In this document: positions 1 to 64,000 of the stretch, piece after piece
How positions within the stretch are numbered: position 1 is the stretch's first letter
Layout: each line of letters opens with the position of its first letter
Source: an uncultured Verrucomicrobiae bacterium
GTDB lineage: Bacteria > Verrucomicrobiota > Verrucomicrobiia > Chthoniobacterales > UBA10450
DNA length: 64,000 bases
Direction: 5' to 3'
Assembly: GCA_963726745.1 (NCBI GenBank)
Contig: CAVSDR010000003.1
Location: forward strand, 864,001-928,000
The notes under the pieces: generated by a model
What the model saw: the letters and a program-made list of their open reading frames with translations, nothing else
Databases searched by the model: none
Told to the model about the DNA's origin: nothing
Program-made: the position numbers and the translations under genes

Positions 1-1047
1 GTGGCAACCGGCGCAATCCCGCGCGTAGATGCGGCTGCCAGCTTCCGCCCGGACCGGATCGATCGGATGCGTCGCCGCGAAAGGCCACGCGGGCGGCGGG
101 AGATCGCTCAAGTAGCGGTCGAGGTCGGCCATGCGCTGGAGGAACCACGGGCGCGGCGGCGCGCCCAGACCCATCGCGGAATCGATCAAGACCGAGCGCA
201 CCGCGGGCGTGTCGCCGGTCCAGTTGAGCAGCATTTGCCGGCCGTTTTTATCCTTCCCGCTGCGAATCCCGAGATTCCAGATCGAAGGAAAATCGGTCGG
301 GCCGACGCTGTTGTCCTCCTTCTGCTGGGTCATGAAATACTTCGTTAGGTTCATCGCGTCGTCGCGGCCGGGGCCCCACGCCGGCTTGGCCGTACCGTCC
401 CCGACGAAACGCTCCATCCAGGTGAACTGCTTCTCCTGCTCCAGGAGCGCCTTCCTGGTGAAAGGAATGAGCACGTAGCGGTAGATCTGGCGGTCGAGGA
501 AGCTGAGGCCGCCATTCCCGTACTGGTTGCCGCTAACCAGGCGGATTTCGTTCATCAAGGTCTCGGAGTTAAAGCGCGGATCGTGCGCCGCCTTGAACAT
601 AAAACGGAGGACATCCTGGAGATTATTCGTATGCCCGGGAGCAGCCGCCACGACCTTGGGTGTCTCTTCCTCGCTGAGGCGATAGGTCGCGGTGTGGCAG
701 ACGGCGCAGTTATTTGTCACCCGCTCGAAGCCCACGGTCTTTTTCGAGAAACCGACCGGCATCTCCGCGCCTTCTTCCCAGATGATTCCAAAGGAAGTCC
801 AGCCGCCCGGTCCTGGCAGGAGATCGGCGAAAAGCCGCGGCATTACCAGCCAGATGAAGTAAGGCAGCCCGCGATCACCTTCCGCGCCTAACGAGCCGTA
901 TTTAAATTGCTCTTCCTCGCTGGCGAAGACCTGCGGCCGCTCGCGGAAAAATTTCACCCAGGTGAGCCAGCCGCCAAAAGCCGCGAGCAGAACCAACGAG
1001 ATCAGGCTCACCCCGAGGAAGCGTTTGGTTTTAGGCGACAACTTCAT
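1..1047 (-). CDS. Di-haem cytochrome c protein (RoxA/MauG/CCP-like), 3' end runs off the window
   Basis: Not in the ORF track, translated by hand from ATG 1047: MKLSPKTKRFLGVSLISLVLLAAFGG...FKYGSLGAEGDRGLPYFIW...NNCAVCH...GPGRDD...DFPSIW...RDCAGCH (window edge). N-terminal TM anchor, two CxxCH motifs, clear paralog of 1051..2616. Confidence 0.85.
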   Translation of the reverse strand, partial: MKLSPKTKRFLGVSLISLVLLAAFGGWLTWVKFFRERPQVFASEEEQFKYGSLGAEGDRGLPYFIWLVMPRLFADLLPGPGGWTSFGIIWEEGAEMPVGFSKKTVGFERVTNNCAVCHTATYRLSEEETPKVVAAAPGHTNNLQDVLRFMFKAAHDPRFNSETLMNEIRLVSGNQYGNGGLSFLDRQIYRYVLIPFTRKALLEQEKQFTWMERFVGDGTAKPAWGPGRDDAMNLTKYFMTQQKEDNSVGPTDFPSIWNLGIRSGKDKNGRQMLLNWTGDTPAVRSVLIDSAMGLGAPPRPWFLQRMADLDRYLSDLPPPAWPFAATHPIDPVRAEAGSRIYARDCAGCH

Positions 1048-1050
1048 CGG

Positions 1051-2616
1051 TCAAAAAGTCTTGAGGTATTCCACCAGCGCGTCCTTCTCCGCCGGCGAGA
1101 GCATCGTCCCGTAGGCGGCGCCTTCGTGGCCCGTATTCAGGTTGCCCTCGTTGCGCTCGCGCGGCGTTGCGCCCTCGCGCGGCTGGGTTTCGTAACGAAA
1201 GAAATGCCGTGGATTGGCCGGGTCATCGAGGCTGGTGCCATCCTCCCGGAAATGCCCGGGCTCAGAGACAAAGCCGAGCTTCGCCTGGTCGTAGACATCG
1301 TAGCCGCGGTAGAAAACCTGCGGCCGCTCAGCCGCGGGATTGAGCAGGTCGCGCATCGTTGGCACAGAACCGTTGTGCAGATAGGGCGCGCGCGCCCAGA
1401 CGCCGTCGAGCGGCATGTTTGCGTAGCCGTAGGTTTTGCGGAAACGATGGAAGCGCCACGGGTAGCCGGCGTAGAGGTTGTTCTGCGAAGCGGCCAGCTG
1501 GTGCGTGTAGGAATCGAGCCGATGCCGGTCGGTCCCGATCTCAGCGATCGGCACCACCTGCCCGACCTGCGCGCCTTCGAAATCGCGGCCGCTACGCCCG
1601 TGGCAGCTCGCGCAGTATTGCGCGTAGATCGGCGCGCCTTGGGCCGCGCGCGCCTGGTCGATCGCGAAAGGATACTTTGGCGGCTCCTTGGTCAGGAGCC
1701 AGCTCTCCAGCCGGCTTACTTGTTTTAAGTCGATCGTTGGCGGAAACGTGCCGGTGCCGAAGGAGGCGCTCTTGTTTCGTTCTTCCATCTTGTCGTTATT
1801 CCCATCCCAATGCGCGTGCAGCCCGCGCTCTTTCCGCTGCCCTTGCAGCCAGATGGAGGGGAAATCGCACAAGCCCACCAGCTCCCGCGTTTCCAGCTTC
1901 TCCAGCGGAAACTCGAGCAGCGTCTTCGCCGGCGTGAAAGTATCGGTGCGGCCGGGACCTTGGGCTGCTTCCCAATCAAGAAAACGAAAATGACCCGCGA
2001 GAAGTAAGAGCCGCTCGCGCATTAGCGGAATGGCGTAGAAGCGCATGATCTGGCGGTTGAGGAAATCGTAGTCCGCCCCGATGCCTTGCATCTCCGCCAT
2101 GAGGCGATCAGCAGTAAAGCGCTGGTCCGCGGCACAAGCGAAGACAAAGCGTTCAAACGCGCCCAGGTCGACTGTGTTCGACGGCATCCCGGTGTGGAAC
2201 ACCGGCGGGCTCGCGGGGGTTTCCCGCACGGAGCCGACATGGCAGATGGCGCAGTTTAGGAAGACGCGATTAATCCCCTGGGTGTTCCGCTGCGAGACTC
2301 CCACCGGCAAATCCTTCCCGTCCTCATAGAGAAAACCTAACGAGACGTATTCTTTTCCCGGGACATATTGCTTTCCGGGCAAATACTCCGGAAACATTTT
2401 AGGCAGCACTTTCCAAATCCAGATCGGGATCCCGGATTCCCGCTCGCCGCCGGTGGAACCATACTTGAAGTGCTCCTCGAGGTCGGCATAAAGCACCGGC
2501 TGGTCGCGGTTAAAACGCTGGAGATAATGCAAGGCCACGAGCGTGAGCAGGGCCACCCAGACAAGGAACACGAAACGCCAGCGCGCCTTCCGTTCTTCTA
2601 GGTCCGGCTCAGCCAT
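1051..2616 (-). CDS. Membrane-anchored di-haem cytochrome c protein (RoxA/MauG/CCP-like)
   Basis: 521 aa, N-terminal TM helix, CAICH and CASCH haem motifs, PLDGVWARAPYLHNGSVPT motif, ends ALVEYLKTF. Confidence 0.85.
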   Translation of the reverse strand: MAEPDLEERKARWRFVFLVWVALLTLVALHYLQRFNRDQPVLYADLEEHFKYGSTGGERESGIPIWIWKVLPKMFPEYLPGKQYVPGKEYVSLGFLYEDGKDLPVGVSQRNTQGINRVFLNCAICHVGSVRETPASPPVFHTGMPSNTVDLGAFERFVFACAADQRFTADRLMAEMQGIGADYDFLNRQIMRFYAIPLMRERLLLLAGHFRFLDWEAAQGPGRTDTFTPAKTLLEFPLEKLETRELVGLCDFPSIWLQGQRKERGLHAHWDGNNDKMEERNKSASFGTGTFPPTIDLKQVSRLESWLLTKEPPKYPFAIDQARAAQGAPIYAQYCASCHGRSGRDFEGAQVGQVVPIAEIGTDRHRLDSYTHQLAASQNNLYAGYPWRFHRFRKTYGYANMPLDGVWARAPYLHNGSVPTMRDLLNPAAERPQVFYRGYDVYDQAKLGFVSEPGHFREDGTSLDDPANPRHFFRYETQPREGATPRERNEGNLNTGHEGAAYGTMLSPAEKDALVEYLKTF

Positions 2617-2627
2617 GCGCGCTCCAC

Positions 2628-3068
2628 TCAGTCCACCGGAAACTCCAAGGCGAAATCAATCAGCCGCTTCTTGCTCCAGAAGACCTTGCCCAGGTAAGTC
2701 CCGGGCGCGACCAGACGGATTTCATCCCGGATCCAATGGGCCACGAGCGAGGTCTCGGAATAATCCAGGACGATGCACTCCTTCTGGTCCATCCAGCTGG
2801 GTCCTTTGTAAACTTTTGCCAAAATGGCACTCAGGCCGAAGGGAAGAATCTTGTTTCGGAGCACTCCTTTGGCCGGATCAAAGACCTTCCCCTGCCAGGC
2901 GAAATGATTGACGAAGGTCGCAATCTCATCGGTGAAACGCGTTCCCGGGGCGACGATTGCGGTGCCTTTAGCTTCCCCGCTGGGGATTTCGCCGGCTGGA
3001 GCCTGGAGAAATAACTCATCCAGCTGTTCCTGCGTCATCTTCATCAACTCGGCGACAGTGTTTGGCAT
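2628..3068 (-). CDS. Conserved hypothetical protein within the cytochrome operon
   Basis: ORF 2628..3089. Start at 3068 preferred because GAAAGGAGA (RBS-like) precedes it. WQGKVF and VLDYSETSLVAHWIRDEIR segments, tightly packed between the cytochrome genes. Confidence 0.7.
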   Translation of the reverse strand: MPNTVAELMKMTQEQLDELFLQAPAGEIPSGEAKGTAIVAPGTRFTDEIATFVNHFAWQGKVFDPAKGVLRNKILPFGLSAILAKVYKGPSWMDQKECIVLDYSETSLVAHWIRDEIRLVAPGTYLGKVFWSKKRLIDFALEFPVD

Positions 3069-3089
3069 AGGTCTCCTTTCGTTAGGCAT

Positions 3090-5270
3090 TCACAGCGTCT
3101 TCAGGAATTCGATCAGCGCGCGCTTATCTTCATCGGCAAGGTCGGTGCCGAAGTAATGGCCTTTGTCTTCCACGAAATCGGGACACTTATTCGCCGCCAG
3201 CATCTCTGGCACGGCCTTGATCAGTTCTGCAGTCGCTTCATCGCCCTCCAGGTGGCGCGCCTTGATCGCGACGAAGGCTTTCAGGAGTTTTGCCTGAATG
3301 GCCACGAGGTCACCCAGGTCCGGCTTTAAATTAGCCAGCAAGTTCACTGGCGTGCCTTTCGGCACCGGGCCGAAGTTCAGGTAACCATCCTTATCCGCAA
3401 AAACGCGCAGCGGCTTGGGAACAAATTCCTTTGCCAGGTGGAGGTAACACTCGTTCTCGGTGCGCCAGATGGAATTCCGGCCCGGCCGTTTCTCCGGCCA
3501 GAGAAGCTTCTCTGCCGCATCCTGGAACGCGGCCAGCCTTCCGCCTACCGAAGGATCGCCATTGAAGTTCCCGAGCGCGTTGTTATGCAGGAACGGCGCA
3601 GAACTCCAAATGCTCACCAGGGACGGCGTGCGGTAGTAGCCGGCCCCGACGTCGCGCTCGGCCGGCTTGTAGCTGATCGGCTGAGTTTCGTCGAAAGGAT
3701 TCAGGAAACTCATCTCTCCGGGGCGCGGCAGTTCTTTGTAGGTCTTGGAGGAGAAGTTATCCCAGATGTGGCCGGCCATGGCGTTGGTCCCAAAGGCGCG
3801 CGCGGAGTTCGTCTTAATCTGGTCGACCGGATAACGCTTTTCGTTCGAGAGGAAATTATCCTGGAGGAACTCGGGCTTCATGACCTCGGCCAGGAACCAG
3901 GCTTTTCCTTCGGCCGATTGCGGGTCGGTGCCCGCGGGCGGTTGCTTGCTGGAATGGCAACCGGCGCAGCTATTGGCAAAGACTTGCCGGCCACGATTCA
4001 TCACGGTGGCGTCCTGGGTGATGAAGGTCGCGCCGCCCGGCGCGTCGGCTAATTTGTAAGGCTGCAAGCGGCGAAAGAAGGCCGCGATGTTCCCCAGCCG
4101 TTCCTCCGTCGCGCGCCAAAAGACAGAGTGCTCGCGCGCATACGGAATCTCGAACGGCTTCTGCGGGAGCAGCCCGATGAGGCGATTATGCCGGGTAAGC
4201 CAATACTCCGAGAACATGCCGATATTCACGTAAACCCGGATGGTCGCGCCGGGCACGCCGATGGAATCCGCGCCATCCTTGAGGATGTGCGCAACCGGCA
4301 TGACCGACTCGGTCCCGGGCAATGCGAGGGTGCCGCCGGCGAGGGTTTCCTCGTGGGCGATGCGCTCGCGTTCCCCGAGAAGGAAGATGGCATTGATCGC
4401 GTTCGGATTATTCAAGTGATCGGTCGCGATGCGTGAGGTGTCGGAAGTGCCCGGGGGCTGCGCCCGCAGCATTTCGTAGAAGAAGCCACCCTTAGCCACG
4501 TTCGGGGCGAAGACGCGGCCCTCGCGCAGGTATTGGTTCCCGATCGCGGAGGCGAGATTCTCCCAGCCCGGGTTCTCGGGATCAGCCGGCGGATTGGTCG
4601 GCAGCGGCGCGATATGGCAAGCCCCGCAGGAAACGCCTACGCGGTATGGCCTAACGAGCGATTTTTGGTTGTAATAGGAAGGATCGTTCAGATAGCGGTT
4701 GCCATCCCACTTCTGGCGCGCCGCGGCATCGAAAGCCGGATTCGGGAAGAGGCGAAACCCGAGCACGCCGGAGGCCTTGCCGTAAACTTTTTCATCGATC
4801 CCCGCCGGTTCCGGCTCGACCGGCTGATCCAGCCAAAGTCCAAACTCATCCGGCTGGCTCGCGGCGCGGAAGCCCGGCTGGTTGATCACCCCCAGAGTCT
4901 TGAAGCGTTCTCCGCGCGGATACTTTCGGTTATCCAGCGTCTTCAAAAGATCCATCAAGCCAAAGCTGTCCTGCGCGACTTCGTTCCAAAAATGCTGGTT
5001 CCCGCCGGTCCAGAGATTCCAGGCATTCCGCCCCATGATTTCCTCCGGCAGGAGCACCAGTCCGCCGTCCATTTTGGCAAAGACATCCTCGGTTACCTGC
5101 GGAAAGTCTCTTGTCGTTAGGCGGGCGGCTTTGGCTTCATCCACCGGGTCGCGATCGCAACCGCTGGCGAAGAAGAGGAAGAGGAGGAGCGCACCGCCGA
5201 GATAGAGCTTCCACGTGCGACCGTGGCTCACGGCTGCCGGGCTGCTTTGCGTTGGGGGAAACGCGTTCAA
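3090..5270 (-). CDS. Large di-haem cytochrome c, probable lipoprotein
   Basis: 726 aa, hydrophobic signal ending FASGC (lipobox-like), CGACH and CAGCH, YRTPSLVSIWSSAPFLHNN, ends ALIEFLKTL like the paralog. Confidence 0.8.
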   Translation of the reverse strand: MNAFPPTQSSPAAVSHGRTWKLYLGGALLLFLFFASGCDRDPVDEAKAARLTTRDFPQVTEDVFAKMDGGLVLLPEEIMGRNAWNLWTGGNQHFWNEVAQDSFGLMDLLKTLDNRKYPRGERFKTLGVINQPGFRAASQPDEFGLWLDQPVEPEPAGIDEKVYGKASGVLGFRLFPNPAFDAAARQKWDGNRYLNDPSYYNQKSLVRPYRVGVSCGACHIAPLPTNPPADPENPGWENLASAIGNQYLREGRVFAPNVAKGGFFYEMLRAQPPGTSDTSRIATDHLNNPNAINAIFLLGERERIAHEETLAGGTLALPGTESVMPVAHILKDGADSIGVPGATIRVYVNIGMFSEYWLTRHNRLIGLLPQKPFEIPYAREHSVFWRATEERLGNIAAFFRRLQPYKLADAPGGATFITQDATVMNRGRQVFANSCAGCHSSKQPPAGTDPQSAEGKAWFLAEVMKPEFLQDNFLSNEKRYPVDQIKTNSARAFGTNAMAGHIWDNFSSKTYKELPRPGEMSFLNPFDETQPISYKPAERDVGAGYYRTPSLVSIWSSAPFLHNNALGNFNGDPSVGGRLAAFQDAAEKLLWPEKRPGRNSIWRTENECYLHLAKEFVPKPLRVFADKDGYLNFGPVPKGTPVNLLANLKPDLGDLVAIQAKLLKAFVAIKARHLEGDEATAELIKAVPEMLAANKCPDFVEDKGHYFGTDLADEDKRALIEFLKTL

Positions 5271-5330
5271 GCCAGCCGCAGGTGTAACCTTTTCCGCGGC
5301 CCCCTCACAAGGAGAAACATCCCGCGGCGT

Positions 5331-8061
5331 CTAGGTCTGGAGCGCTTCCTCCAGCCAGGCGGGCATGGAAGTGCCGAGATGTCTTTGCACCGCGCGCACG
5401 AAGCCGGCGAAATCCTCCACCGGGTCCGGACAGATGAGATTCATCGTGTGCCGGCCGAGCATGCGATAACTCTCGAACTGCGACTCGCTGAAGAATTGAT
5501 CGGTCGTGCTCTCGTGCGGGAAGAGCTTGTTGCTTTTGAAATACTCGTAGACGTCGCGCGGCTCCGCGCCGTAGCAGGCGGGCTTCAGGTAAACCAGGAT
5601 GCCATCAGGCGCGCCCTCACCGTCGACTGGCGAGTAGCAGCACGCGCCCGATCGCGGCGTGACAGCCGCCCGCGCCGCCCGGCGGCTGATCGTTCCGGCC
5701 ATAGATGCGGATGTCGTCGAACTCGATCGAAATGCCGAGATCGATCCGGATTTTGCGCACGGCATCGCCGAGATCGGCGAAAGAGCATTCCGGATCCTGG
5801 CCGGCGTCGCTGACTACGAGGTAATGGCAGCGCCGCAGAACCATTTCGTAAAGCCCGAGGTTCTCGAAATGTCCTCCGTCGGATAGGTAAACGTAGGGAT
5901 TGCACTCGTTCGTTAGGCCGAAGGCTTCGGCAAAGATCGGGCGCACGCTGAAGTTCGGGTAACTCAGCTGAAAAGTATTGTCCCCCGCCGGCCCGGGGTT
6001 ACCCAGCCATGCCCCCAGGCGGACGTTCAGCAAGGTGAGGATAAAGGTGACCAGCGGCGAGGAATGGTAGCCCATGTTTGGGCTCGCGGCCGCGCCGGAG
6101 ATGGTGATGGCCGTGCCTAACGAAAGCTCGCCACCGTAGCGGCAGCCCGCCGGCGCGACCAGCCGGCGATAGCCGACTTCATACGACCCGCAATGCAGCG
6201 GCGAAATGGTGAAACTGGCCGCCTTGCGGTCCTGCCAGGCCAGCCGCTTTCCGCTGACGAGGTTGAGCGCAACGTTCACCACCGGGAGAAGTCGCCGGCT
6301 AAATTTCTCCGGTGGCCAGACGAAACGCATGGCCACGTTGTCCTTCTCGTCGAAGCCGGTAAACGGATTCGGGCACCGGCGGCGATTGGAAGCGCCCAGG
6401 TAGGCGCGGATGAGCCGGTCGCGATACATCGCGTGCAGGGAAAACTTGTTCGTGTTGATCAAGTGCGCCATCGCCAGCCCGAAGAGCGCCAGCCCGGCAG
6501 CCACGCAGCTGAGCAGCGAAAGCGGCGTGTAGAGGATGACGTTGAGGTATTCCACCGTCTCGCCGAGGACGGCAGAGCGATCCTGCAGATTCCACGGCAA
6601 TGCGAGGCTTTGGCCGATGTGTTTCACCATCCAGGTGGTCCCTTTGGTGATGAAGATCATGAGCACGAGGACGAACAGCAGCGCCGCCAGGCTGGTCGCC
6701 TTCGAGAGAAGGAGCGCGAGCGGCCCGGCTTTGCCTTTTTCCTTGTCGTTCGCCGGGATGTAGCTGCTCCGGCTGGCCAGAATAGTCAGCAACCCGGAGA
6801 TCGCGCCCGCCGCCAAAGTGCTGCCTAAACGCACCCCACGCGAGAGCAGGAGCGGGCCGAAAACGAGCAGGCCGCTCATCAGGACCCAGCCAGCCGCAAG
6901 CGCAAGAAACCAGCCGGTCGCGCGGCCCCACCATTCGCGATCGGGATCGCCGGTCCACCGGCTGGAGATGCCGGCGAAGACCATGATCGCGAGAAAGAAA
7001 AACGAGAGAAACAGCGGCACCGCAAGGCAGGTGTAGAGCTCGGCTTTGGCGGTGGGTTGATTAAAAATTTTCGTTGCCCCCAGCCAGAGAAGCCAGCCGC
7101 CCACGCCGCCGGAGACAACAACGGCGATGAACTCCTTGAAACGAAAGCCATGCGCCCGCAGGAGCGAAGTGGCCCACGAGATCAGGTGCATCACCACCCC
7201 GAAAAGGACGAAGGGATACTCCGAGCGGAACTCCGTCCAGCCGAAGAAGCGCCAGGCAATCAAAGGCCGCTCGTAGTAACGCCACCAAGCCCAGTGCAGG
7301 GTGATGCAAATCGCCGCCAGCAGCATCGGCAGGAGGCAGAAGAAGAGGAAGCGATTCTGGCTCCAGCGGCGGTTCCCACCGCAGGGAAGATTCAGGCCCA
7401 TGTAGGCCACGCTCATCGCGATGCAGAGCCCGCCGGCGAGCAGCGGGTAGACTGAATACGGCGGCGGCGAGAGCATGAGCGTGGCGGTGTAAAACCACGG
7501 CACCGTGAGCATCGCCGCGAGCAGCGGCAGGAGGACACACCAGTTTAGCAGGAGATTGCGCAGGTAAGTGCCGATGAGCGTCCAGGTGTCGGCGGAGAGC
7601 AGGCCCAGGCGCGGGCTTAAGTAGTTTGAGTAACTGCGGAGGTTTTGGATCGGTTCCGGCTCGGGGTTGGGCCGCGCCTTTGGCTCCGGTTGCGCCAGCC
7701 GCGCGGTCACTTCGCTCAAGCCGCCATCGGCATTCCCGATCCAGGCCGCGAGCCAGCCGCCGATGTAACCGCCGCCCGACACGGTCGAGAGATAATGAAA
7801 TTGCGGGAGCAACCCGATCCGCGCCAACCCCTGGAGCACGCCCAGGGAAAAGGTCGCGCTCCGGATGCCGCCGCCGGAAATACAAAGTGCTGCCTGTTTT
7901 TCCTCCAAGGCATGGACGGCCGACCAGTAGGCCGGCAAAGCTTCCTCGGGGATATTCCCAGAGGATTCGTTAGGCAGCGGCCCATGCAGCCGGGCAAATT
8001 CCTCCCGCAAAACTTCGTGCAGTGGCAGCGAAGGGTTGACCGGGGAAGGAGGCGTCTCCAT
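5331..8061 (-). CDS. Patatin/cPLA2-like phospholipase with multi-TM insert (apparent frameshift near 5640)
   Basis: SGGGIRSA oxyanion motif, STVSGGGY nucleophile motif, many TM helices, LSDGGHFENLG. The C-terminus continues in ORF 5331..5765 (FPHESTTDQFFSESQFESYRMLG). Confidence 0.8.
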
Positions 8062-8162
8062 GCCGTGCGGACTGCACCCAGTCTTACCGAAGCGTCTCCG
8101 GTAAGGCAAGCTCGTTAGTCCAACGGCGCTTTACGCGCGTCGCTGCGCCTTAGGCAGCGAGA

Positions 8163-8254
8163 TGGCGGAAGGGGTGGGATTCGAACCCACGGTGGGTTTA
8201 ACCCCACGTTCGATTTCGAGTCGAGTGCCTTAAACCGGGCTCAGCCACCCTTCC
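8163..8254 (-). tRNA. tRNA-Ser (anticodon CGA)
   Basis: Reverse complement reads GGAAGGGTGGCTGAG...CT CGA AA...long variable arm...GGTTCGAATCCC ACCCCTTCCGCCA, with encoded CCA. Confidence 0.95.
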
Positions 8255-8315
8255 TCTCGATTGCGCTTGCGGGGTGATTATGCTGGAGCCCGCTTATTTT
8301 GCAACGCCTCTTGCG

Positions 8316-9642
8316 TCACGAAAAAGTTGCGTGCGCCAGCCATCCCAGCGCGAGCAGATCCAGCAGCAGCGCGCCAGCCAGGAGCGCCTCGAGCATCCGC
8401 GGGACCCGGCGCAACCAGTCGTTAGCCAGCGAGATCAGGAGGAACGGCAAAAGCGGGAGGAAATAGCGCCCCTGGAAACCCTGCACGCGCGGCGCGCCCA
8501 CGGCATTCCACATCGAATAAATCGCGAACTCCGCGGCCACGAAACCTGCGAGCGCCGTCGCGAAAAAGAGCGCGCGCATGGGCCAGGAGAGGCGCAACGT
8601 TCCCGGCTCCAGCAGGCAAACGCCAAGTGCGAGGAGCAGCAAAAATCCCAGCACGAGGAACCATGGCAGCGGGAAATTGAGCCAGCCGAAAACGCCGATC
8701 ATTTCCCGCAGGTGATTCACGCCGAGCTCGCGCAGGTCGGTCAGCATCGCGCCGAGAAACCTCGCCCGGAGCCTGCTGGAGAAGCGCCAACTGGCCCGCG
8801 GGATTGGTCGTGATTCCCGGGCGCATCTGGTTGAAAAGCGCGGGCAATTGCGCGCTCCAGGCGAGATACGGCACGATGAAGGCGCTGGCTAAAAGGGCGC
8901 GCAAACCCCAGCCCCGCGTCCCGGTGCGCCCAGGCAGCGCGAAGACCGTCAAGACCAGGAGCGGCGCGCGCGTTTGCGAAAGCAGGAGCGCCAGCACCAC
9001 CAGCCACACCTGTTCGTCCAGCGTGAGCGTCCCCCGGCTGCGCGCGCGCAAGAGTTCCGCGCACCAAAGAAAAGCCAGCGGGATGGTCACGCTATCGGCG
9101 CTCACGACGCCCAGTTGAAAAAGCAGCATCGGAATGAAAGCGAAAACTCCCAGCGCCTCCGCCCCTGGCGGGAGGCGCCGCAAAGCGAGCACGAGCAAGC
9201 CCGCGCCGCAGAGCGCGCCGGCCAACCGGGCTGCGTAGAAAAGCACCAGCGGCCGGTGTTCCACCGAGCGGACGAGCGCGATCGCCGCGGCCTGCGGCAG
9301 GTAAGTCACCGGCGAGTAGAGCGCGCTCCCGGGAAAATTGGCCCACGCGCGCTTGTGCGGACGCAGGCGCACCTGGCTGCCGAGGCGAAACTGGCCGCGG
9401 CTGGTTTCGATCTTTGCCGCGCGCGGGAACTCGCCCGCGGCGGTCGCAAGTTGCAGCAAGCTGGCCGGCAATTCCCCGCCGACGACGCCTCCCGGTCCGC
9501 GCTGCGCGAGCCATTGGCCTTCCGAGACCTGGTAGGCGCGGAAGAAATGGCTCGGCTCATCCGCGCCGCGAAACGGTCCGGTCACGAGGGGAAACGCGAG
9601 CGCAAAAGCGAAAACGGCGAAGCTGGCGAGGCGCGTTCTCAT
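8316..9642 (-). CDS. DUF2142-like integral membrane protein, putative GT-C glycosyltransferase (apparent frameshift near 8760)
   Basis: P..GADEPSHFFRAYQVS, YSPVTYLPQA and C-terminal GFQGRYFLP motifs, split over ORFs 8422..9690 and 8316..8747. Confidence 0.7.
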
Positions 9643-9759
9643 CCGTAGAGGGCGAAGGTGGGGAGTTTTCCCCGCCGGGGCGAGCCGCAAAAGCGAAAGC
9701 GCCGGCTAATTTTAGACAGCAAATTGGGCGGAAAAGGCGGTTTCTCCCTCGTAAAAAAA

Positions 9760-9768
9760 TGTTACAAT
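9760..9768 (+). promoter_or_regulatory. Extended -10 element upstream of nrdJ
   Basis: TGtTACAAT in an AT-rich patch about 175 nt upstream of the nrdJ start. Confidence 0.5.
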
Positions 9769-9793
9769 TCTGTGCTTGAGCGGGGCTGCCTGA

Positions 9794-9841
9794 GCACCCC
9801 ATCTTGTAGACCGCTCGGGCAGCTCCCCCAGCATCTTGTTG
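9794..9841 (+). promoter_or_regulatory. Tandem putative NrdR boxes
   Basis: gcaccccATCTTGTag (9794-9809) and ccccagcATCTTGTtg (9826-9841) are 32 nt apart, partially match the NrdR consensus acaCwAtATaTwGtg, and lie between the promoter and nrdJ. Confidence 0.6.
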
Positions 9842-9943
9842 TTCCCGGTTCTTCACGGGTTGTGCACAGGATGCTGGCTGGGCTGTTCACGGTTCTTCGC
9901 CGTTTTTCACACCAACCGTTCACCTTTCAACCGTCGACCCGTC

Positions 9944-48898: not shown

Positions 48899-48902
48899 CG
48901 AC

Positions 48903-51243: not shown

Positions 51244-51347
51244 AGATGGAACGACGGCCTGAGGGCCGGGTTACTGTTCTCTTGATCGCGATGGCGCCCA
51301 GCAACTCCACCAAAGGGAGGGAGCGCGCCAGGATCGGCCTGCGAGGA

Positions 51348-51611: not shown

Positions 51612-51679
51612 AACGAAGGGCCCACCTTAGATGCGAAATGCGCATTAGCAAGGGCCGCCCCTGAGATTGATTTCGCTGG

Positions 51680-52903: not shown

Positions 52904-52929
52904 GCGCGCCGAGCTAAGCAAACCACTCG

Positions 52930-53391
52930 TTAGCCGTCGAGCGCCAAGGTGAAGTGATGCGAGGCGATCTGCATCCGCTTGCGCAGGTAAAAGCGATGCG
53001 CGTCGAAGCGTTGCACCCCGGAATCGAGCGTGAAAGCGCGGCACTTCTCGCGCCGCGCCTCCTGCACCAGCCAATCGAAAAGCCGGTCGCCAAAACCGCG
53101 CGAGCGATCCGCGGCCCGCGTCACCAGGTCGTCTACGTAAAGCGTCCGCCCGGAGAAAAGCAGCTCGAGGATCCGGTAGCCCGCGACTGCGCGCACCTCC
53201 CCGTCCGCCTCGAGAAAAGCCAGCCGGTAACCTTCCTTCTGCTGTCGCTGAACTTGCCGGCTAAATTTCGCCCGGTCCGCGTGGTGCGGCCGCAATTCCG
53301 CCATGACCGCGTGGCAGCGGCCGATCTCCGCCGCGGTGCGCGCCTCCCGGATCGTTACGTCGCCGGGCGTTCCCGTTTTCCGTCGTACCAT
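52930..53391 (-). CDS. GNAT family acetyltransferase
   Basis: LYVDDLVT, RSRGFG, LDSGVQRFDAHRFY. Start uncertain because it overlaps the upstream gene. Confidence 0.88.
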   Translation of the reverse strand: MVRRKTGTPGDVTIREARTAAEIGRCHAVMAELRPHHADRAKFSRQVQRQQKEGYRLAFLEADGEVRAVAGYRILELLFSGRTLYVDDLVTRAADRSRGFGDRLFDWLVQEARREKCRAFTLDSGVQRFDAHRFYLRKRMQIASHHFTLALDG

Positions 53392-54074
53392 AAATCAAGC
53401 TTCTCCCGCTTCCGCAGCGCCCGTTGGCCGCCGAAGAAAATGAAAAACGTCTGCCCGAGAACGAAGCGCGCCGAGTGCATTCGCACCTTCCGCGCGGAGG
53501 TCACGATCGGCTCGCGCAGGATCTCGAAGCGGCCGATTTTTTTCAAAGCCAGGGTCAGGAAGACCTCTTCGCCGGCGAAATATTGCTCATCGAAACCGCC
53601 CGCCTGCTCGAAGAACTCGCGCCGGGTGAAGACAAACGCGCCCACCGCCAGTCGCATCCGAAAGTAGATCGCGGAGAAGCAGCGCAGGAAAATGCGCGCC
53701 CAGAGCGCAAGCTCACTATCCATCGCCACGTAGGCGCTCCCGCCCACCGCTCCCTTTGCCAGCGCCGCGAGCGCGCCGGTGACGTGCCCGGGCGCGATCC
53801 GCGTGTCGGCATCCACGAAGAACAGCACCTCGCCCTGCGCCACCCGCGCCCCGGCGTTGCGGGCCGCGGCGATCTGGCGGCGTTCGATCGCAACCACCCG
53901 GGCGCCAAAGCCGCGCGCGATCTCCGCGGTTGCATCGCTCGAGGCGTCGTCCACCACGATGAGTTCGTAGCTTTCGCCGGAGGCATCGGCCGCCACGCGC
54001 AGTGCCGAGAGCGACCCGGGCAACTCGAGTTCCTCGTTGTGGGCCGGGACCACGAAGGAGAGCGCGGGCGTCAT
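53355..54074 (-). CDS. Family 2 glycosyltransferase
   Basis: SFVVPAHNEE, VVDDASSDAT, ARNAGA, FVDAD, GGFDE. Confidence 0.9.
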   Translation of the reverse strand: MTPALSFVVPAHNEELELPGSLSALRVAADASGESYELIVVDDASSDATAEIARGFGARVVAIERRQIAAARNAGARVAQGEVLFFVDADTRIAPGHVTGALAALAKGAVGGSAYVAMDSELALWARIFLRCFSAIYFRMRLAVGAFVFTRREFFEQAGGFDEQYFAGEEVFLTLALKKIGRFEILREPIVTSARKVRMHSARFVLGQTFFIFFGGQRALRKREKLDLWYDGKRERPAT

Positions 54075-54177
54075 CGGCGGGAGGTTGAGCCCGAATCGCC
54101 CGCGACGAAAGCGATTTTCCTGCCGGCGCGGGCACGACACCTGCACTGCCTAACGAGACTACCTCGTTCCATCTCCT

Positions 54178-54634
<457 letters not shown>

Positions 54635-54645
<11 letters not shown>

Positions 54646-55741
54646 GCTTGCCGGCAAGCAGCGCCTCGGAATCGAGCGTCTGCGGGCCGGCTTCGGTACA
54701 GACAGCAAATTGATTCGGGTAAAGCGCCACGCCCGCGTACTCGCCCTTGGCGTTCAGGATGTAGAAGTTGACGTTAAAATTCGGGAGGCCGCGGCTGTTC
54801 AGGAGACGCTTCTCGATCGTGTTCCCCTGGATGCGCTTGAGCGCTTCCATCCCGGCGTCTTTCGGTGTCATTCCGCGCCGCATGTTTTCCACGATCAGGA
54901 ACGAGCAAAGGCCGTAGAGATTGGCCTCGCCGCGCCCGGTTGAGCCGGCGGCGCCAATCTCGCCATCGACATAAAGTCCCGCACCCAGGATCGGCGAATC
55001 GCCCACCCGGCCGGGAATCTTCCACGCCAAGCCGCTCGTCGTGGTCACGCCGCAGATCTCGCCCTGCGCGTTCACCCCGTTGCAATTGATCGTCCCGGTG
55101 ACGTGCTGCATTTCGATCAGCCCCTCGTTTACCATCGCCACGCGCGCGCGATCGCCCGCCTCGGCGCGTTTCTGCGGGTCGAGCCAATGCTCGGGATCGA
55201 TCCGGCGTTTCCAATCGAGCCAAAGGCGGCGCGACTCCTCGGTGTTCAGGTCCTCCTCGATCTTGAAGCCCATGTCGCGCGCAAATTTCTGCGCGCCCGC
55301 GCCCACCAGCAGGTGGTGATCGGTAAAGTTCATTACCTTTTGCGCAACGTTCGACGGCGTGCGCACGCCCTCGATGCAGGCCACGCCGCCGGCCCGCTTC
55401 TTCGGCCCATGCATGCAGCAGGAGTCGAGCTGGACCACGCCGTCGGCATTGGGCAATCCGCCAAAGCCAACGCTCGTGTCCGCGGGGTCGAGTTCGACGA
55501 TGTTCACCCCGGCGATGAGCGCGTCGAGCACATCGCCGCCCTGCGTCATCAAGGTCCAGGCTTTCTGCACGCAGGTCATCTCGCCGCCGTTCTTGAATTT
55601 GTTTCCGTTCGCCGACGAGATCACCACCGGCTTGCTCGACTTGTTAGGCATAATCTTGGGAGACTGAGCGCGCAGAGCGCGCGGGAGGCTGGCGGCCAGG
55701 CTCGCGGCCGCGGTGGTTTTGACGAAATTGCGGCGATCCAT
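54635..55741 (-). CDS. Tat-exported N4-(beta-N-acetylglucosaminyl)-L-asparaginase/Ntn hydrolase
   Basis: MDRRNFVK Tat signal, SVGFGGLPN, GTI nucleophile, TTTSGLAWKIPGRVGDSPILGAG, TGRGE. Confidence 0.88.
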
Positions 55742-55757
55742 CGCGTGAAAGCGTCGG

Positions 55758-57249
55758 CTATTTCTTCCAGACGTCGCCCACGCCTTCGCCAAGCCAGCGG
55801 GTGCTCACGACTTTTTGCTGGGTGTAAAACTGCACCCCTTCCTTCCCCTGGATGTGGAGGTCGCCGTAGAACGATTCGTCCCAGCCGGTGAACGGGAAAC
55901 ATCGCCATGGTCGCGGGCACGCCGACGTTGATCCCGACCATCCCAGCTTTCACGCGATGCTTGAATTCGCGCGCGGCTTTGCCGGAGTTGGTGAAGATCG
56001 CGGCGCCGTTGCCGTAGGCGGATTTGTTTGCCAGCGCGATCGCCTGGTCGAGGTCGTCCATCCGCATGACGTTAAGCACCGGGCCGAAGATTTCCTCGCG
56101 GCCGATGGTCATTTCGTTCTGCACTTGGTCGACGATGGTCGCGCCAAGATAGAAGCCGTTCGGCGCTTCCGAGACGCGCAGGTCGCGCCCATCGGCGATG
56201 ATCTTGGCGCCTTCCTTCTCGCCGCTAGCCAGCAAGCTCAGGACGCGGTCGCGGTGCTGCGCGGTGATCACCGGGCCCATGTCCGGTTGCGCCTCGGCGC
56301 CATCGGTCGGGCCGACCTTGATCGCGCGCGCGGCCTCGACCAACGACGGCAGCAGATGCTCCGCGGCCTTGCCGACGGTGATCGCAGTCGAGCCGGCCAT
56401 GCAACGTTCGCCGGCGCAGCCAAAGGCGGCGGTCGAGAGCGCCTCGACCGTGCGCGGGACATCGGCATCGGGCATGACCACGATGTAGTTCTTCGCGCCG
56501 CCGTTCGCTTGCACCCGCTTTCCGTGGCGCGTGCCGGTTTCGAAGATGTATTTCGCCACCGGGGAAGAGCCGACGAAGGAAATCGCGCGCACCTTCGGAT
56601 GCGTCAGAAGCGCATCGACGCATTCGCGGCCGCCGTGGACGATGTTGAGCACGCCTTTCGGCAAGCCGGCTTTCTCGAGCAGCTCGATGATCATGACCAC
56701 CGTGAGCGGGACTTTCTCGCTCGGCTTGAGCACGAAGGTGTTTCCGCATGCGAGCGCCAGCGGGAACATCCACATCGGCACCATCGCGGGAAAATTAAAC
56801 GGCGTGATCCCGACGCAGACGCCGAGCGGCTGCAGGAGCGTCTCGCAATCGACCCCGCGCGCGAGATCCGGCAGGTTGTCGCCCATCAGGAGCGTCGGCG
56901 CGCTGCAGGCGTACTCGACATTCTCCAGCCCGCGATAAACGCTCCCGCGCGCTTCCGCGAGCGTCTTCCCGTGCTCGCGCGAAACGCTCGCGCAGATGCG
57001 CTCGAAGTTTTCCTCGAGCAACTGGCGGTAGCGGAAAAACAAACGCGCCCGCTCCACTACCGGAGTGTCGCGCCACGCCGGAAAAGCCGCGTGCGCGGCC
57101 TCGACCGCATCATTCACCCGGTCGGCCCCGCACATCGGGACCTCGGCAATCACTTCGCCGCGGGAGGGATTGTAGACGGGCGAAGTGCCGTTGCCGTCAA
57201 CGGTCTCCCAAGTTCCGCCAATGAAGACCGGGCAGGCTGAAGTAGGCAT
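55758..57249 (-). CDS. mmsA: CoA-acylating (methyl)malonate-semialdehyde dehydrogenase (apparent frameshift near 55890)
   Basis: [41 protein letters not shown]. The alternate frame gives [33 protein letters not shown] with a stop at 55758. Confidence 0.88.
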
Positions 57250-57252
57250 GGG

Positions 57253-58382
57253 TTACCCTCGCGCCAATGCGTCGGATTGCTTCACGAAATCGTCGCCGCT
57301 CCACTCGCTGTCGGCCTTGACCATTTTCGCTTCCTCGGCCGCTTTCTGCGCTGCCTTGCGCTCGCCCTGCATGCGCACGAGCTCGGCGTGGGTGGTGAAG
57401 TAATCCAGGCTCTTGCCTTTGAAATCAGCCAGCGTCTCGAAGCTGTGCTTCTCCATGAAGGCGAGCAGCTCGTCCTGCATCCGCTTGACGCATTCGTAGC
57501 CGAACTTCATCACGCCGGTGCAGACCTGGACGGTGTCCGCGCCTAGCAGGATGAACTGCGCGGCGTCGCCGCCGCTTTCCACGCCGCCGATGCCCGAGAG
57601 CGAGCGGCCGGGAAATTCCGTGGCGAATCATGGTCGCGATTTCCATGACCATGCGGAGCGCGATCGGGCGGACCGCCTTGGACGAATAACCGCCCGGCGT
57701 GGTGAAGCCTTCGACCGATTGGCTCCGGCCGGAGCGTCTCGAGGTTCACTCCCATGACACTGCGAATGGTGTTGATCGCCGCCAGTCCCTGGCAGCCGGC
57801 GCGCAGCGAGGCGCGGCTCGGATCGGTGATGCGGGTGACGTTTGGCGTCATCTTCGCCCAGACCGGTTTCTTGGCTGCGCTCATGACCCAGCCGCAGACT
57901 TCCTCGAGAATTTCCGGCACCTGCCCCATGGCCGCGCCCATCTTCCGCTCGGGCAATCCGTGCGGGCAGGAGAAGTTGCACTCAAACGCATCCACCCCCG
58001 CGTCCTGGCAACGCTCGACGATCTCGACCCAGGCGTCCTTGTTGAACTCCTCCATGATCGACGCGATCAAAATTCCCTCGGGAAACTGGTCTTTGATCTT
58101 CTTGAATTCCTCCAGCCAGATCTCGAATTTCCGGTCGCTGATCAGCTCGATGTTTTCCCAGCCGATGACTTCCTTGCGGTCCTCCGAGTAAAGCTTCGCG
58201 TAGCGCGGGGTGACGTTGACCACCTTGCTGGAATCGAGGCTGACGGTCTTCGCGATGACCGCGCCCCAGCCTTCCTTAAAGGCCTTGTTGATCACGTTCA
58301 GGTTCGTCCCCGGAGGACCTGAGCCGATGACGAAAGGGTTGGGTAATTTCAGGCCGTCGACGGTGGTGGCTAGTGTAGGCAT
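57253..58382 (-). CDS. preA: Dihydropyrimidine dehydrogenase PreA, plant PYD1-like with no C-terminal ferredoxin (apparent frameshifts about 57620-57725)
   Basis: NPFVIGSGPPGTN, GWENIELIS, NFSCPHG, WAKMTPN, AINT. The C-terminal part VQVCTGVM..YFTTH..WSGDDFVKQS is in ORF 57253..57582. Confidence 0.85.
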
Positions 58383-58460
58383 AAGCGATGGGGTGGGAGT
58401 CGCTTCTATGCGCCCGGGCCGGAAAACTCAATCCCGAACTCCGCGCGCCCCTGGCGCGCG

Positions 58461-60343
58461 TTACGGCCGCGAGACCTGCAACCGGATGAAGCGCCGCGCC
58501 GCCTCCGCGGTGGAAGCGTTATCATGCGCCTGCAAAAGCGTGAGCGTGTTTTGCTCGATCGTCGTCTCCGCTGCATTCCAGCCCGCGAGGTCGCTCGCTA
58601 CCTCGATCGCAAGCGCGAGATCGGTCGCGGCGGGATTTTTCGCGACCGTCATCCTGAGATGACCCGCCGGATCGAGGCTGGTCGCGACCCCGGTGCCCGG
58701 CGGATAGGCCACCAGCGGATTCAGGCCTAACGAGTACTTGAGCAGATTGGCCAGCCCGTCGCCGCTGGGGTTGGCGGTGTCGGCGGCGTCGCCGGTGTTG
58801 GTCGCGCCGGGCCCAAAATATTGCTGCCGCCAATGATCGACCGTGTCGGTGACCAAGCCGGTGAGCGCGATGACGTGCCGATTCGGATTGCCGCTGGTGT
58901 TCAAGGCAACGGCCGGTTCGTAGCGGTCGTTCGCGGTGAAGCTGAGCGGCGCCTGGTAAAGGCCGCTCGCACTTGCCGAAAGCGTGACGCTAAAGCTGGC
59001 CGACTGGCCGTTGTCCAACGACGCGCTGGGAAAATCCGCGCTGCCGTAGCCGGCGGGGAGCGCAAGATCGGCGAGCATCAGCGGACCGCTGCGCAACGGG
59101 CTGGTTTGGGTGTTCGTGATCGTGATCGTGCGCGCGACCGGCGCATCGAACGGCGTGGCGCCGAAGTCGACTGCCGTGACCACGCTCATTTCCGGCTCGA
59201 TCAACTCGAAGGCGCCAGCATCTGGCAGCGCATGCCGCGGCGCGTCGCGCTGGTCGAGGCTCACGCTCGAGGCGAGCCCTGCCCGCTGCGCAGCCGAGCC
59301 GCGGAGCAGCGCGTGGCTTTTGGTGGAGCCACCGTTGAGCGCGAGCGCGGGGGCCACGGAAGCAGCCAGGTTTGCGCGGCCAAGGCGGTCGCTCCCGCTC
59401 ATGAACTGCGCGCTCGTGACCGTTTCGTCGGTGACGTTTCCGCCTAACGAGGAGTAGCTCAGGGTGAGCGCGCCGGTCGTGTTGCCGGCAAAATTCCGCA
59501 GGGCGCTGGCCGGCGCCTGGTTATTAGCCAGCAGGCTGTTCTTGACGCTGGCGAAGGTGTGATAGCTCGCGGTGTAATTCTCGCGTATCGCCCCGGCCGC
59601 GCCGCTGGCGTCGACATTCGCCACGAAGGTGCAGTGCTCCACGGTAAGCCCGGCCGGATTCGAGGGCGTCGCGCCGTAGTTATAAATCGCGCCGCCGCCC
59701 GGCTGCCCGGTGGCTGCGCCGCTCTGGGTGTTGCCAGAGAAGGTGCAGTTAGTGATCCGGGAAGCGACCGTCGGCCCCAGGCTGAGCGCACCGCCGCCGC
59801 CGTATGTGCCAAAGGCCAGGCCGGTGCTGTTGTTACCGGAGAAGGTGCAGCGGTCCAGGAGGAGGCCGCCGTTGAAGACGTCGACCGCGCCGCCCCAGCC
59901 CGATTGATTATTGCTGAAAGCGCAATCGCGGATCGTGAGTCAATTTCGCCGCGCCGCCGGCGCTGAAGTTGTCGGCAAAAATCGCGCCGCCGGTGTCGAT
60001 GTCCCCGGGGAAGGCCCGGCAGTTGTCGAAAGTGAGGCCGCTGATCGTGCAGCTGGCGTTGGTCAGGTGCAGCGCGCGCGTGGTCGCGTTGGTCGTGATC
60101 GTGAGGTTGGTCGCGCCCGGGCCGGAGAATCGTCAGGTCTTTGCCGTTGACGGCGATTTCACCACTCGTTAGGGCAATCGTCCCGTTGATCTTGAAGGTA
60201 ATCGTGTCGCCATTCGCCGCCGCGGCCAACTGCGCGCGGAGCGAACCGACGCCGCTGTCTGCAGTCGTGCTCACGCTCAGGCTTGCGGCTTGCGCGCCGG
60301 TGCCGGCGAGCAGAAGCGCAAAGATGAGGCGGAGCGTTTTCAT
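58461..60343 (-). CDS. Secreted beta-helix/choice-of-anchor Q-like protein (apparent frameshifts near 60125 and 59940)
   Basis: Signal peptide, VSTTADSGVGSLR, GGA repeats, LALNGGSTKSHALL..DQR..DAGAFE, C-terminal WRQQYFG..GDGLANLLKYSLGLNP. Confidence 0.7.
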
Positions 60344-62511: not shown

Positions 62512-62517
62512 GACTCG

Positions 62518-62964
62518 TTAGCCGCCGTTGGCCGCGCGATGAATCGCCGCGCGAATCCGCTGATACGTCCCGCAAATGCAGATGTTGTGGATCTCGTTGA
62601 TCTCGTCGTCTGTCGGATGCGGCTTCTGGCGCAGGAGCGCGCACGCGGCCATGAGCATGCCGGATTGGCAATAGCCGCATTGCGGGACCTGCTCGGCGAT
62701 CCAGGCCTTTTGCAACGGATGGCTGGCGCCGTCCGGCGAGAGGCCTTCGATGGTGGTGATCGTCTTCCCGACCGCGGAGCTGACGTCGTATTGGCAGGTC
62801 TTCTCGGCCTGGCCGTTGATCATCACCGTGCAGGCCCAGCAAACCTCGATGCCGCAGCCGTATTTCGTCCCGGTGAGCCCGAGGAGGTCGCGCAGGACCC
62901 AGAGCAACGGCGTGCTGCCCGCGACGTTTACGTCATAGTTCTGCCCGTTAACGTTGAGCGTCAC
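62518..62964 (-). CDS. (2Fe-2S)-binding subunit of the same oxidoreductase
   Basis: TPLLWVLRD, GTKYGCG..C.ACTV, QCGYCQSG, CICGTY. Confidence 0.92.
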   Translation of the reverse strand: MTLNVNGQNYDVNVAGSTPLLWVLRDLLGLTGTKYGCGIEVCWACTVMINGQAEKTCQYDVSSAVGKTITTIEGLSPDGASHPLQKAWIAEQVPQCGYCQSGMLMAACALLRQKPHPTDDEINEIHNICICGTYQRIRAAIHRAANGG

Positions 62965-63022
62965 GACAGCGCGAGGATAGGACTTCGCTCGCGGAAAGCA
63001 CGCGCCATTTCAAGGCGGCTCG

Positions 63023-64000
63023 TTAGCCGAAACGGCGGAATTTCGGCCAGGCCTCTTCCCAGCGAAAACGCGGCCCGCGGCAGAGAAAAATGTCGGGATG
63101 CTCGGTGGTCTCCTCGTTGGCAACGCCTTCGCGATTGGTGATGTGGCCGACTAATTCGCAAGAGCGGAAACGCGGCTCCAGATCCTCGCGCGAGGCGCCG
63201 AGAATGATGAGGATTTCCGGAGGCGGATCGCCGTAGCCGCGAGCCCAGAAGGAGTTCACCGGAGAAATCGCAGGCGGCAGACCATACCGCGGGCCGTAGA
63301 GGTTGATCGCGCCGGCTTCGCCGTAGTTGCCCGCGAGGATGCGCACGCGCTCGCGGTCGCCGGGCGGGAGGGAATCGCGGATGCGCGCGACGTTCTCCAC
63401 CAACTCCGGCCAGCCGATTTCCTCGCGCAGGTCGCGGTTAATCTCCGAAACGATCTCCCACCAGCGCGAGTGCAGCGGAGCGAGCGGCAGGAAGATCGCG
63501 GAGATGACGACGATGTTCACGCTCACCCCGAGGAAGGCGAGGGCGCCAATGGTGCGTCGCTTCCACGGGCGACTCTGCGCGAGCCATTCCGCCCCGGCGA
63601 CGGCGCCCGCGGCGTAGAGCATCGGGTAAGCCGGCGCGAGGTAGTAGCCGCGGCCCCGGGCGAGAAGGAAAAGGGCGAGCGGCGCCAGATACATCCAGCC
63701 AAGCACGCGGAACCGCCCTCCCCGCGCGAGGAAGCAGAAGCCGAGGCCGGCCAGCGCCAGCGGGAGCGCGGCCAGGGTGAGCAGCAATTGATCCGGCAGA
63801 AAAGAATCGGTCCGCCCGATCGCGATGTCGCGCGCGTGGATCTTGCGCAGGAACTCCAGCGAGATGAAATCGTGCTGCCATTGCCAGAGGAAATTTGGCA
63901 GGAAGATGAGCAAGGCGAGCGCCGCGCCGAGATAGAGCCACCGGCTGCGTAAATGCGCCCGGAGCGGGCCAAGGATCACGCCCACGCCGAGACCCGCGAC
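63023..64000 (-). CDS. GT39/ArnT-like membrane glycosyltransferase, 5' end outside the window
   Basis: Multi-TM, LPNFLWQ, YYLAPAYP.L.AAG, GWPELV, NYGEAGA motifs. Confidence 0.75.
   Translation of the reverse strand, partial: VAGLGVGVILGPLRAHLRSRWLYLGAALALLIFLPNFLWQWQHDFISLEFLRKIHARDIAIGRTDSFLPDQLLLTLAALPLALAGLGFCFLARGGRFRVLGWMYLAPLALFLLARGRGYYLAPAYPMLYAAGAVAGAEWLAQSRPWKRRTIGALAFLGVSVNIVVISAIFLPLAPLHSRWWEIVSEINRDLREEIGWPELVENVARIRDSLPPGDRERVRILAGNYGEAGAINLYGPRYGLPPAISPVNSFWARGYGDPPPEILIILGASREDLEPRFRSCELVGHITNREGVANEETTEHPDIFLCRGPRFRWEEAWPKFRRFG

Follow-up and report, generated by a model that had tools for sequence, protein, structure and literature searches.

The window and its repeated word

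The DNA under study (the window) is a stretch of 64,000 nucleotides, C3:864001-928000, from the genome of an uncultured bacterium of the order Chthoniobacterales (3.41 Mb in 7 contigs), here called G000. Its genes, placed by our own gene calls (3,122 genes in the genome; a Pfam scan covered 68 of the 3,122 proteins), include those of a class II ribonucleotide reductase, a dicarboxylate symporter, a SIS-domain protein and transporters of the MFS families, and Rfam recognises two tRNAs only. Across these genes and the gaps between them runs a short non-palindromic word with the core CTAACGA, hereafter word 1, which an earlier note on this DNA, made by eye, had put forward as a lineage-specific DNA signal. 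Word 1 is found to be a trait of one bacterial family, and it may be a tag that is favoured during natural transformation.

Exactly 46 copies of CTAACGA are present in the window, 20 on the forward and 26 on the reverse strand, each at the position the earlier note had given (Table 1), and 33 of them do extend to CCTAACGA. By chance a mean of 3.36 and a maximum of 7 copies would be expected, as judged from 100 dinucleotide shuffles. Thirty copies lie in coding bodies, 10 at stop codons and 6 between genes. The whole genome carries 2,025 copies (1,034 on the forward and 991 on the reverse strand), at 0.45-0.70 per kb on every contig, compared with 136-398 expected under Markov models of orders 2-4, so that the over-representation holds up under these nulls; the maximal model of order 5 expects 1,395, a figure inflated by word 1 itself.

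The heptamer is enriched, as first described, but the true motif is longer. Its consensus is (Y)GCCTAACGAG(W)nn(W), with G at position -2 in 87% of the copies, C at -1 in 75% and G at +7 in 64%, and conservation ends at +11. In coding DNA the full 10-mer occurs 627 times, with 4.5 copies expected from the amino acids and the word-masked codon usage. Variants at positions 1, 2 and 10, and the change from G to A at position 8, are still enriched 7- to 69-fold, whereas variants inside CTAAC or at the last A show no enrichment; the word has a strict core, CTAAC(G/a)A, and graded flanks. A depletion of one-off variants, considered as a test of mutational conversion, was set aside as confounded by dicodon bias. 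No description of word 1 was found in a literature search with incomplete coverage of subscription journals.

Table 1. Positions of word 1 and of other features in the window, and of features elsewhere in G000 or in other genomes and phage records that are discussed in the text
Feature	Position	Strand	Details
Word 1 (CTAACGA core of GCCTAACGAG), 20 copies	888..59450	+	starts 888, 2337, 4651, 6117, 19118, 20378, 22183, 23684, 23958, 24286, 25032, 33311, 36311, 38060, 38470, 41111, 48895, 54150, 58727, 59444
Word 1, 26 copies	342..63026	-	+ strand starts 342, 3079, 5114, 5910, 7967, 8112, 8419, 11714, 12071, 17479, 19287, 26424, 27651, 32264, 38805, 42832, 45922, 47837, 48254, 52927, 54639, 60166, 60344, 61546, 62515, 63020
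Two word-1 copies in class II ribonucleotide reductase gene (9944-12643, +)	11714..12077	-	read TCG-TTA-G
Word-1 copy in SIS-domain (GmhA-like) gene	38470..38476	+	read CTA-ACG-A
Word-1 copy covered by a contig (259 bases) from public run X1	22183..22189	+	one-letter difference from the window
Word 2	1028..63157	both	107 matrix matches of at least 11 bits, 77 of at least 14 bits; e.g. 3328 -, 6287 +, 9694 +, 21257 +, 53249 +
tRNA	8166-8254	-	Rfam
tRNA	38138-38209	+	Rfam
attC array, G000	C6:737843-744800		8 sites (L286)
Beta-class methyltransferase, G000	C3:981251-982042		263 amino acids, Pfam N6_N4_Mtase (L285:5252-6040)
ComEA-like fusion, relatives	L238:1495-2427, L239, L242
ComEA-like fusion, G000	C4:17230-17874, C2:230178-230267		two separate pieces
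recA, G000	C6:172199-172988		in two frames
Type I modification-subunit fragments, G000	C4:371575-372988, C6:81-1458		at two contig ends
Word-1 clusters in two phage records	L348:9966-10018, L355:9191-10033, L350:9957-10043		full consensus
Prophage-like terminase locus, G057	C4:2091-6869		L388

A constraint acting on DNA

Genome-wide, 1,458 copies of word 1 fall inside genes, where each of the four open frames is used; of the rest, 263 contain a stop codon, 303 lie between genes and 1 lies over a start. In genes of at least 300 bases there are 1,437 coding copies, compared with a mean of 120 and a maximum of 145 in 20 synonymous-codon shuffles, a 12-fold excess which bears out the earlier claim that the constraint acts on DNA and not on protein. 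The codon readings offered for that claim are correct as well, namely TCG-TTA at 11714, 12071, 17479, 47837 and 48254, CTA-ACG at 38470 and GTT-AG at 45922, and Pfam confirms the families named for their host genes. In genes of at least 300 bases TCG-TTA encodes 485 of the 752 Ser-Leu-Gly (SLG) tripeptides, and the proteome over-uses the tripeptides that the word encodes (SLG 763 vs 422-576 in three permutations; PNE 253 vs 134-182). Word 1 is costly enough to change peptides.

The word has no clear polarity with respect to GC skew: the G-rich strand bears 743 copies and the C-rich strand 820 (p=0.055), and a 1-Mb contig of nearly uniform skew is split 316:305. Its profile along genes is flat. 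Its density differs little between coding DNA (0.50 per kb) and intergenic DNA (0.57-0.79 per kb) and is reduced in genes with low GC at third codon positions (0.35 vs about 0.53 per kb). Copies avoid one another at short range: the density of pairs at 12-200 bp is 0.49 of random, while 60 control heptamers give at least 0.83, and the deficit spans about 250 bp and is gone near 300 bp. This self-avoidance is weaker in the related genomes G013 and G024 and is reversed at 10-50 bp in G087, where up to four tandem copies in units of 10-13 bp stand at gene junctions (L251-L258). The seven longest stretches of G000 empty of word 1 measure 13.5-25 kb and, by a reading of N-termini, appear to hold mainly genes of sugar biosynthesis or of large secreted proteins; word 1 is absent from polysaccharide islands.

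Two features of composition were seen alongside. TAG is the most frequent stop codon in G000 by our own gene calls (TAG 1,106, TGA 1,087, TAA 929), which is unusual at 64% GC. The tetramer GTAC is strongly avoided in coding DNA, hexamers bearing it reaching 0.04-0.08 of the codon-shuffle expectation, and this avoidance varies among relatives.

The history of the sites was followed in 429 ortholog pairs, drawn from partial regions of eight genomes of the same genus. Of 196 sites in G000, 190 could be aligned, and 174 of these 190 have no gap within five codons (control 17,331/18,104 = 95.7%). Among sites with an unchanged peptide, word 1 persists at 18 of 21 in G013, at 18 of 21 in G024 and at 12 of 33 in six low-density genomes of the genus, while identity at four-fold sites is 50-54% (0.53-0.54 for G013 and G024). 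The gap-free alignment together with the retention at silent sites points to an origin of word 1 by substitution and to its continuing maintenance.

A trait of one family

The lineage specificity first suspected from one window is borne out by a census, in which, as in the other genome tallies reported below (order, integrase, ComEC, ComEA, methyltransferase, DUF7305, ParB and word 2), unpublished genomes are included. Among 200 genomes from 33 genera of the family the density of CCTAACGA ranges from about 7 to 1,480 per Mb. It exceeds that of a reversed-word control in 188 of them and does not in 12 (counted from the table), whereas the rest of the order, represented by 16 genomes of 15 families, has none above control (1-18 per Mb), and all 5 genomes from elsewhere in the class are below it. 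Nor did any genome reach its reversed-word control in two overlapping samples, of 101 and of 401 genomes of uncertain placement, from the order of G341, a putative member of the Gemmatimonadaceae. The lowest genome of the family, G062, has 1 coding copy vs 3-6 in shuffled sequence, and its sampled copies are nearly all non-coding and resemble attC ends. The weakest members of the family, at about 21 per Mb, lie near the highest outgroup. On a PNPase tree the density of word 1 shifts several times within the genus of G000; only the sister pair G001/G012 in this comparison rests directly on one unpublished genome.

Word 1 is therefore a trait of one family of Chthoniobacterales, wider than one genome. 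The label Chthoniobacterales is also borne by close relatives of its proteins. We take this family (GTDB UBA10450) to be that of Candidatus Udaeobacter. Three genomes titled Candidatus Udaeobacter or AV_138 gave 157 vs 48, 74 vs 49 and 44 vs 43 copies of word and control, two being clearly above control and the third barely; one Chthoniobacter and one Limisphaerales genome had 2 copies each. With its near-null member G062, a 200-fold range of density and extra words confined to sub-lineages, the family constitutes a natural experiment, and a whole-proteome comparison across that range could reveal reader genes.

Identity with the left end of attC sites

In the nomenclature of attC, the recombination site of integron cassettes, the R'' box reads RYYYAAC and is followed by a spacer. 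Clusters of word 1 in the outgroup G028 proved to be cassette arrays, with elements of 100-125 bp that have the word at the start, GTTAGGC at the end and a bottom strand that folds back on itself. Of 16 elements of this kind, 12 start with CTAACGA and 4 with CTAACGT. G000 has an array of its own and a few single sites. A class-wide search, which fixed only RYYYAAC and the inner box and did not demand a start of CTAACGA, gave 99 matches in 38 of 121 genomes. All 26 matches in the family and 38 of the 73 outside it start with CTAACGA (counted by eye), some of the other rows being probably chance matches in genes, and in the outgroup G312 8 of 10 copies of GCCTAACGA coincide with attC matches. 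By sequence comparison, word 1 is the same as the left end, R'' box plus spacer, that attC sites of the class most often have, and, as the matches outside the family indicate, this end ranges wider than the genome-wide excess of the word.

The likeness extends beyond the core, since GCCTAACGA(G/C) is the modal left end of attC sites in Verrucomicrobiae integrons and the weaker preferences at +8 and +11 agree. The dispersed copies differ in that they lack L boxes, an R' partner and a hairpin, and lie inside housekeeping genes; R'' and R' boxes around a foldable element of 60-140 bp occur at only about a dozen sites, in or near the array. An integrase is present in 34 of 49 genomes, G062 and outgroups among them, and its presence is unrelated to the density of word 1. 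In the same 49 genomes it was not found in G024, G075, G087 and G000, in the last despite the 8-site array, and a stand-alone integrase N-terminal domain was not found in G000 either.

Further words

Once word 1 was masked, a second word emerged, word 2 (SAWnKYGYYGGCWAWWTY), with about 3,850 strong sites in the genome and hence more abundant than word 1. At 14 bits its coding matches number 3,156 vs 172-184 in three shuffles, a ratio somewhat generous because the matrix was trained on G000. Word 2 is non-polar, self-avoiding and indifferent to word 1, and a fixed sub-pattern of it is clearly high in 3 of 41 genomes (G000, G011 and G015). It often stands in inverted pairs that share an A/T tract, at an offset of 13-14 bp. 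The earlier interpretation of word 1 as a lineage-specific signal at the level of DNA stands as far as it went; it missed the identity with the attC left end, the short-range self-avoidance and this second word.

Word 3, AAGATCGACA(W), reaches 167 copies per 100 kb in G065 (L405-L409) and 28 in G072 (L390-L394), compared with 0.6-2 in G000, G058 and G064; it begins with seven bases similar to the inner box of this class of attC sites. A possible fourth word, GTTGGACGTT, was seen in G005 (L017-L022) and G015 (L003-L009); in 120 kb of G005, TTGGACGTT occurs 13 times where 0.5 copies are expected. It seems that words of this kind, each with a reader of its own, are readily gained in the family.

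Candidate machinery

G000 encodes, intact, ComEC (847 amino acids), DprA, two PilB-like and two PilT-like proteins, PilC, PilM/N and pilins, whereas ComM and ComF, as well as MutL and MutS, were recognised by short sequence patterns only. In the order a ComEA-like protein occurs as a fusion, with a seemingly nuclease-like domain at its N-terminus. ComEC and ComEA-like genes were rejected as an explanation of word density, as they do not discriminate. Minor-pilin operons with DUF7305 were likewise rejected as the reader: they occur in 21 of 53 genomes, including G062, and were not found in any of the three genomes of the densest genus. A ParB paralogue was also considered, and a single ordinary ParB was found; a canonical parS pattern had no match. 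A dif-like origin of word 1 was dropped, no convincing dif having been found.

A beta-class methyltransferase, convergent with an HD-domain gene and with no restriction gene evident beside it, follows the family more closely. It is present in 34 of 34 family genomes tested, with 67-78% identity among them, and in 2 of 26 outside. Its closest solved structures are distant (E 7e-20), and a single-sequence fold was set aside (predicted local distance difference test, pLDDT, 37). The enzyme is also present in three genomes without the word (G062, G039 and G253); this family-fixed orphan methyltransferase is a candidate partner, not a sufficient one. Fragments of type I modification subunits lie at two contig ends of G000, one of them followed by an open reading frame that looks DarT-like by eye.

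A possible tag for natural transformation and its rivals

The explanation we favour, tentatively and with not quite even confidence, is that word 1 is a self-type tag favoured during natural transformation, by analogy with known uptake sequences. In this view a sequence-specific factor of the family would read GCCTAACGAG as a tag scattered through the DNA; the factor would most likely work during natural transformation, either in uptake or in the processing step that comes next, and would favour DNA that bears the word. Point mutations that complete a word would be re-imported more often and so would spread by molecular drive, and a second copy within about 250 bp would give little gain. Words 2 and 3 would be further specificities, independently gained, of the same kind of process. 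If word 1 is such a tag, biased gene flow is implied in very common, uncultured soil Verrucomicrobia, given that genomes titled Candidatus Udaeobacter carry it.

With less support, the specificity of the factor may first have evolved on DNA with attC sites, the attC class being both older and more widespread than the genome-wide excess. According to PMC12614218, transformation feeds cassette capture and chromosomal integrons in Vibrio, and on that ground a reader specific for attC ends is a plausible hypothesis. A fuller version, in which an ancestral uptake or processing factor recognised the left end of cassette sites and thereby scavenged free gene cassettes from DNA in the environment, with chromosomal copies as a by-product and further readers added or swapped later, is speculative and on balance doubtful. 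The match with attC ends nevertheless offers a testable origin of such tags and a possible route of cassette capture.

Several observations weigh against a transformation tag. ComEC is present in 40 of 41 genomes whatever the word density and thus provides no discrimination; recA is in two frames in G000 and whole in four relatives, through error or as a pseudogene; and the ComEA-like fusion is in two pieces in G000, with its helix-hairpin-helix part truncated. No receptor was found: of 9 pilin-like proteins none is markedly basic, and there was no match to the ComP family among the 68 proteins scanned. There is no mutual avoidance between words 1 and 2, so a single uptake step cannot explain both. 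The sites fall in somewhat more variable protein regions by residue and gap statistics, which means that part of the pattern is tolerance. The tandem copies of G087, the densest genome, lie 10-13 bp apart in free DNA and fit poorly with the idea that a single copy suffices for each fragment. Among 2,018 gaps between neighbouring copies only 6 belong to head-to-head pairs less than 60 bp apart, and gaps between convergent genes show no excess beyond 0.79 vs 0.57-0.70 per kb.

The best-surviving rival is an abundant intracellular DNA-binding protein with a role in chromosome organisation, replication or segregation, its site being kept every few hundred to two thousand bases and the same protein being used by attC arrays. 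Similar densities in coding and intergenic DNA and the self-avoidance agree with it, and in six dense genomes same-orientation spacings accumulate at 10-11, 13 and 21-23 bp, as would fit binding to one helix face. The full consensus is also tightly clustered between genes in two phage records. In one of them the copies lie between the primase and terminase genes and at the end of the contig; in the other, five copies are packed into 90 bp behind an endolysin gene, three of them being the tolerated G-to-A variant. The terminase of the clustered phage has its best family match at 42-45%, in 5 of 201 genomes. However, among viral contigs 33 loci hold a tandem pair and none is word-rich along its length, and under a stricter pattern tandem pairs are no commoner than for a control word (7 vs 12 loci). 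The wide range of density within the family and its shifts between sister genomes are hard to square with an essential structural role, as are empty stretches of up to 25 kb; ParB is single and ordinary, and the only recombinases seen are XerC/XerD-like. Such a protein has an appreciable, though clearly minor, chance of being the answer. Separately, a prophage-like terminase locus in G057 has 5 copies in 4.8 kb, with 0 and 1 copies in two other such loci, L387 and L389.

A methylation ratchet is rather unlikely as the whole account. In it the word would be marked by the orphan methyltransferase, and the strand so marked would be preferred in mismatch repair or gene conversion, a mechanism that has been proposed for HIP1. 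The distribution of the enzyme, the lack of an evident restriction gene beside it and the MutL and MutS patterns speak for it, and so does the HIP1 precedent (PMC13756078). Yet G062, G253 and G039 have the enzyme without the word, any family-specific gene would give the same distribution, and one enzyme cannot explain three unrelated words. The ratchet can be the marking half of a transformation tag, with which it is partly compatible.

That the dispersed copies are attC remnants or products of secondary integrase sites is very improbable and largely refuted. In its favour are the match to the attC left end, which extends to as many as 14 positions, and the real array in G000, but GTTRRRY follows 40-150 bp downstream at only 105 of 2,025 sites (5.2%; random 5.6%), GCCTAACCA, the word of the R' end, is scarce (23 vs 1,312), and the end of conservation at +11, the gap-free alignment in housekeeping genes and the indifference to integrase all contradict it. 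An artefact of base-calling, codon usage or stop-codon context, to which the copies that include a stop codon and the frameshifts of the assembly might have pointed, is refuted by the internal copies in excess of codon shuffles, by the sharing of the word among about 200 separately assembled genomes, by its retention at orthologous positions and by the contig of another public run, which covers one site and differs from the window at just one of its 259 bases.

Comparison with known systems

New here are a census of the whole family that includes a near-null member, an extended match that concerns the R'' end of attC and not the R' end, the short-range self-avoidance, the stacked independent words and the family-fixed methyltransferase. 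Like word 1, Chi and the FtsK-orienting polar sequences (KOPS) are short, non-palindromic, over-represented words; word 1 differs from them in its want of GC-skew polarity, as the earlier note had argued from the window.

Sequence-tagged DNA uptake is established in two families, and HIP1 (highly iterated palindrome 1) is likely a third case. HIP1 (GCGATCGC), like other highly iterated palindromes of cyanobacteria, resembles word 1 in its spread by substitution, its conservation in coding and non-coding DNA, its non-random spacing, its large differences in density between relatives and an orphan methyltransferase fixed in the lineage (PMC13756078). The difference is that GCCTAACGAG is not self-complementary, and that the candidate methyltransferase also occurs in genomes without word 1.

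The closest likeness is to the uptake signal sequences (USS) of Pasteurellaceae, with the core AAGTGCGGT, and the DNA uptake sequences (DUS) of Neisseriaceae, GCCGTCTGAA. Like word 1, these (PMC3458573, PMC2817400, PMC1939737) are non-palindromic words of 9-10 bp with more than 1,000 copies, on both strands and in all open frames, without orientation bias, with a strict inner core and graded flanks (an inner and an outer core in USS; PMC3458573) and with enrichment of the encoded tripeptides (PMC2817400). Competence genes are present in G000 too, among them ComEC, which also occurs in genomes lacking word 1. Word 1 belongs to another phylum and has another sequence, and the inverted terminator pairs typical of DUS and USS are almost nil. 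It is constant across some 30 genera while its density varies 200-fold, it has extra unrelated words stacked upon it, and it equals an attC end; the comparison draws on genome sequence for word 1, where uptake is proposed by analogy. Since it has neither the terminator pairs of DUS and USS nor the palindrome of HIP1, word 1 would work like these systems rather than be a member of any of them.

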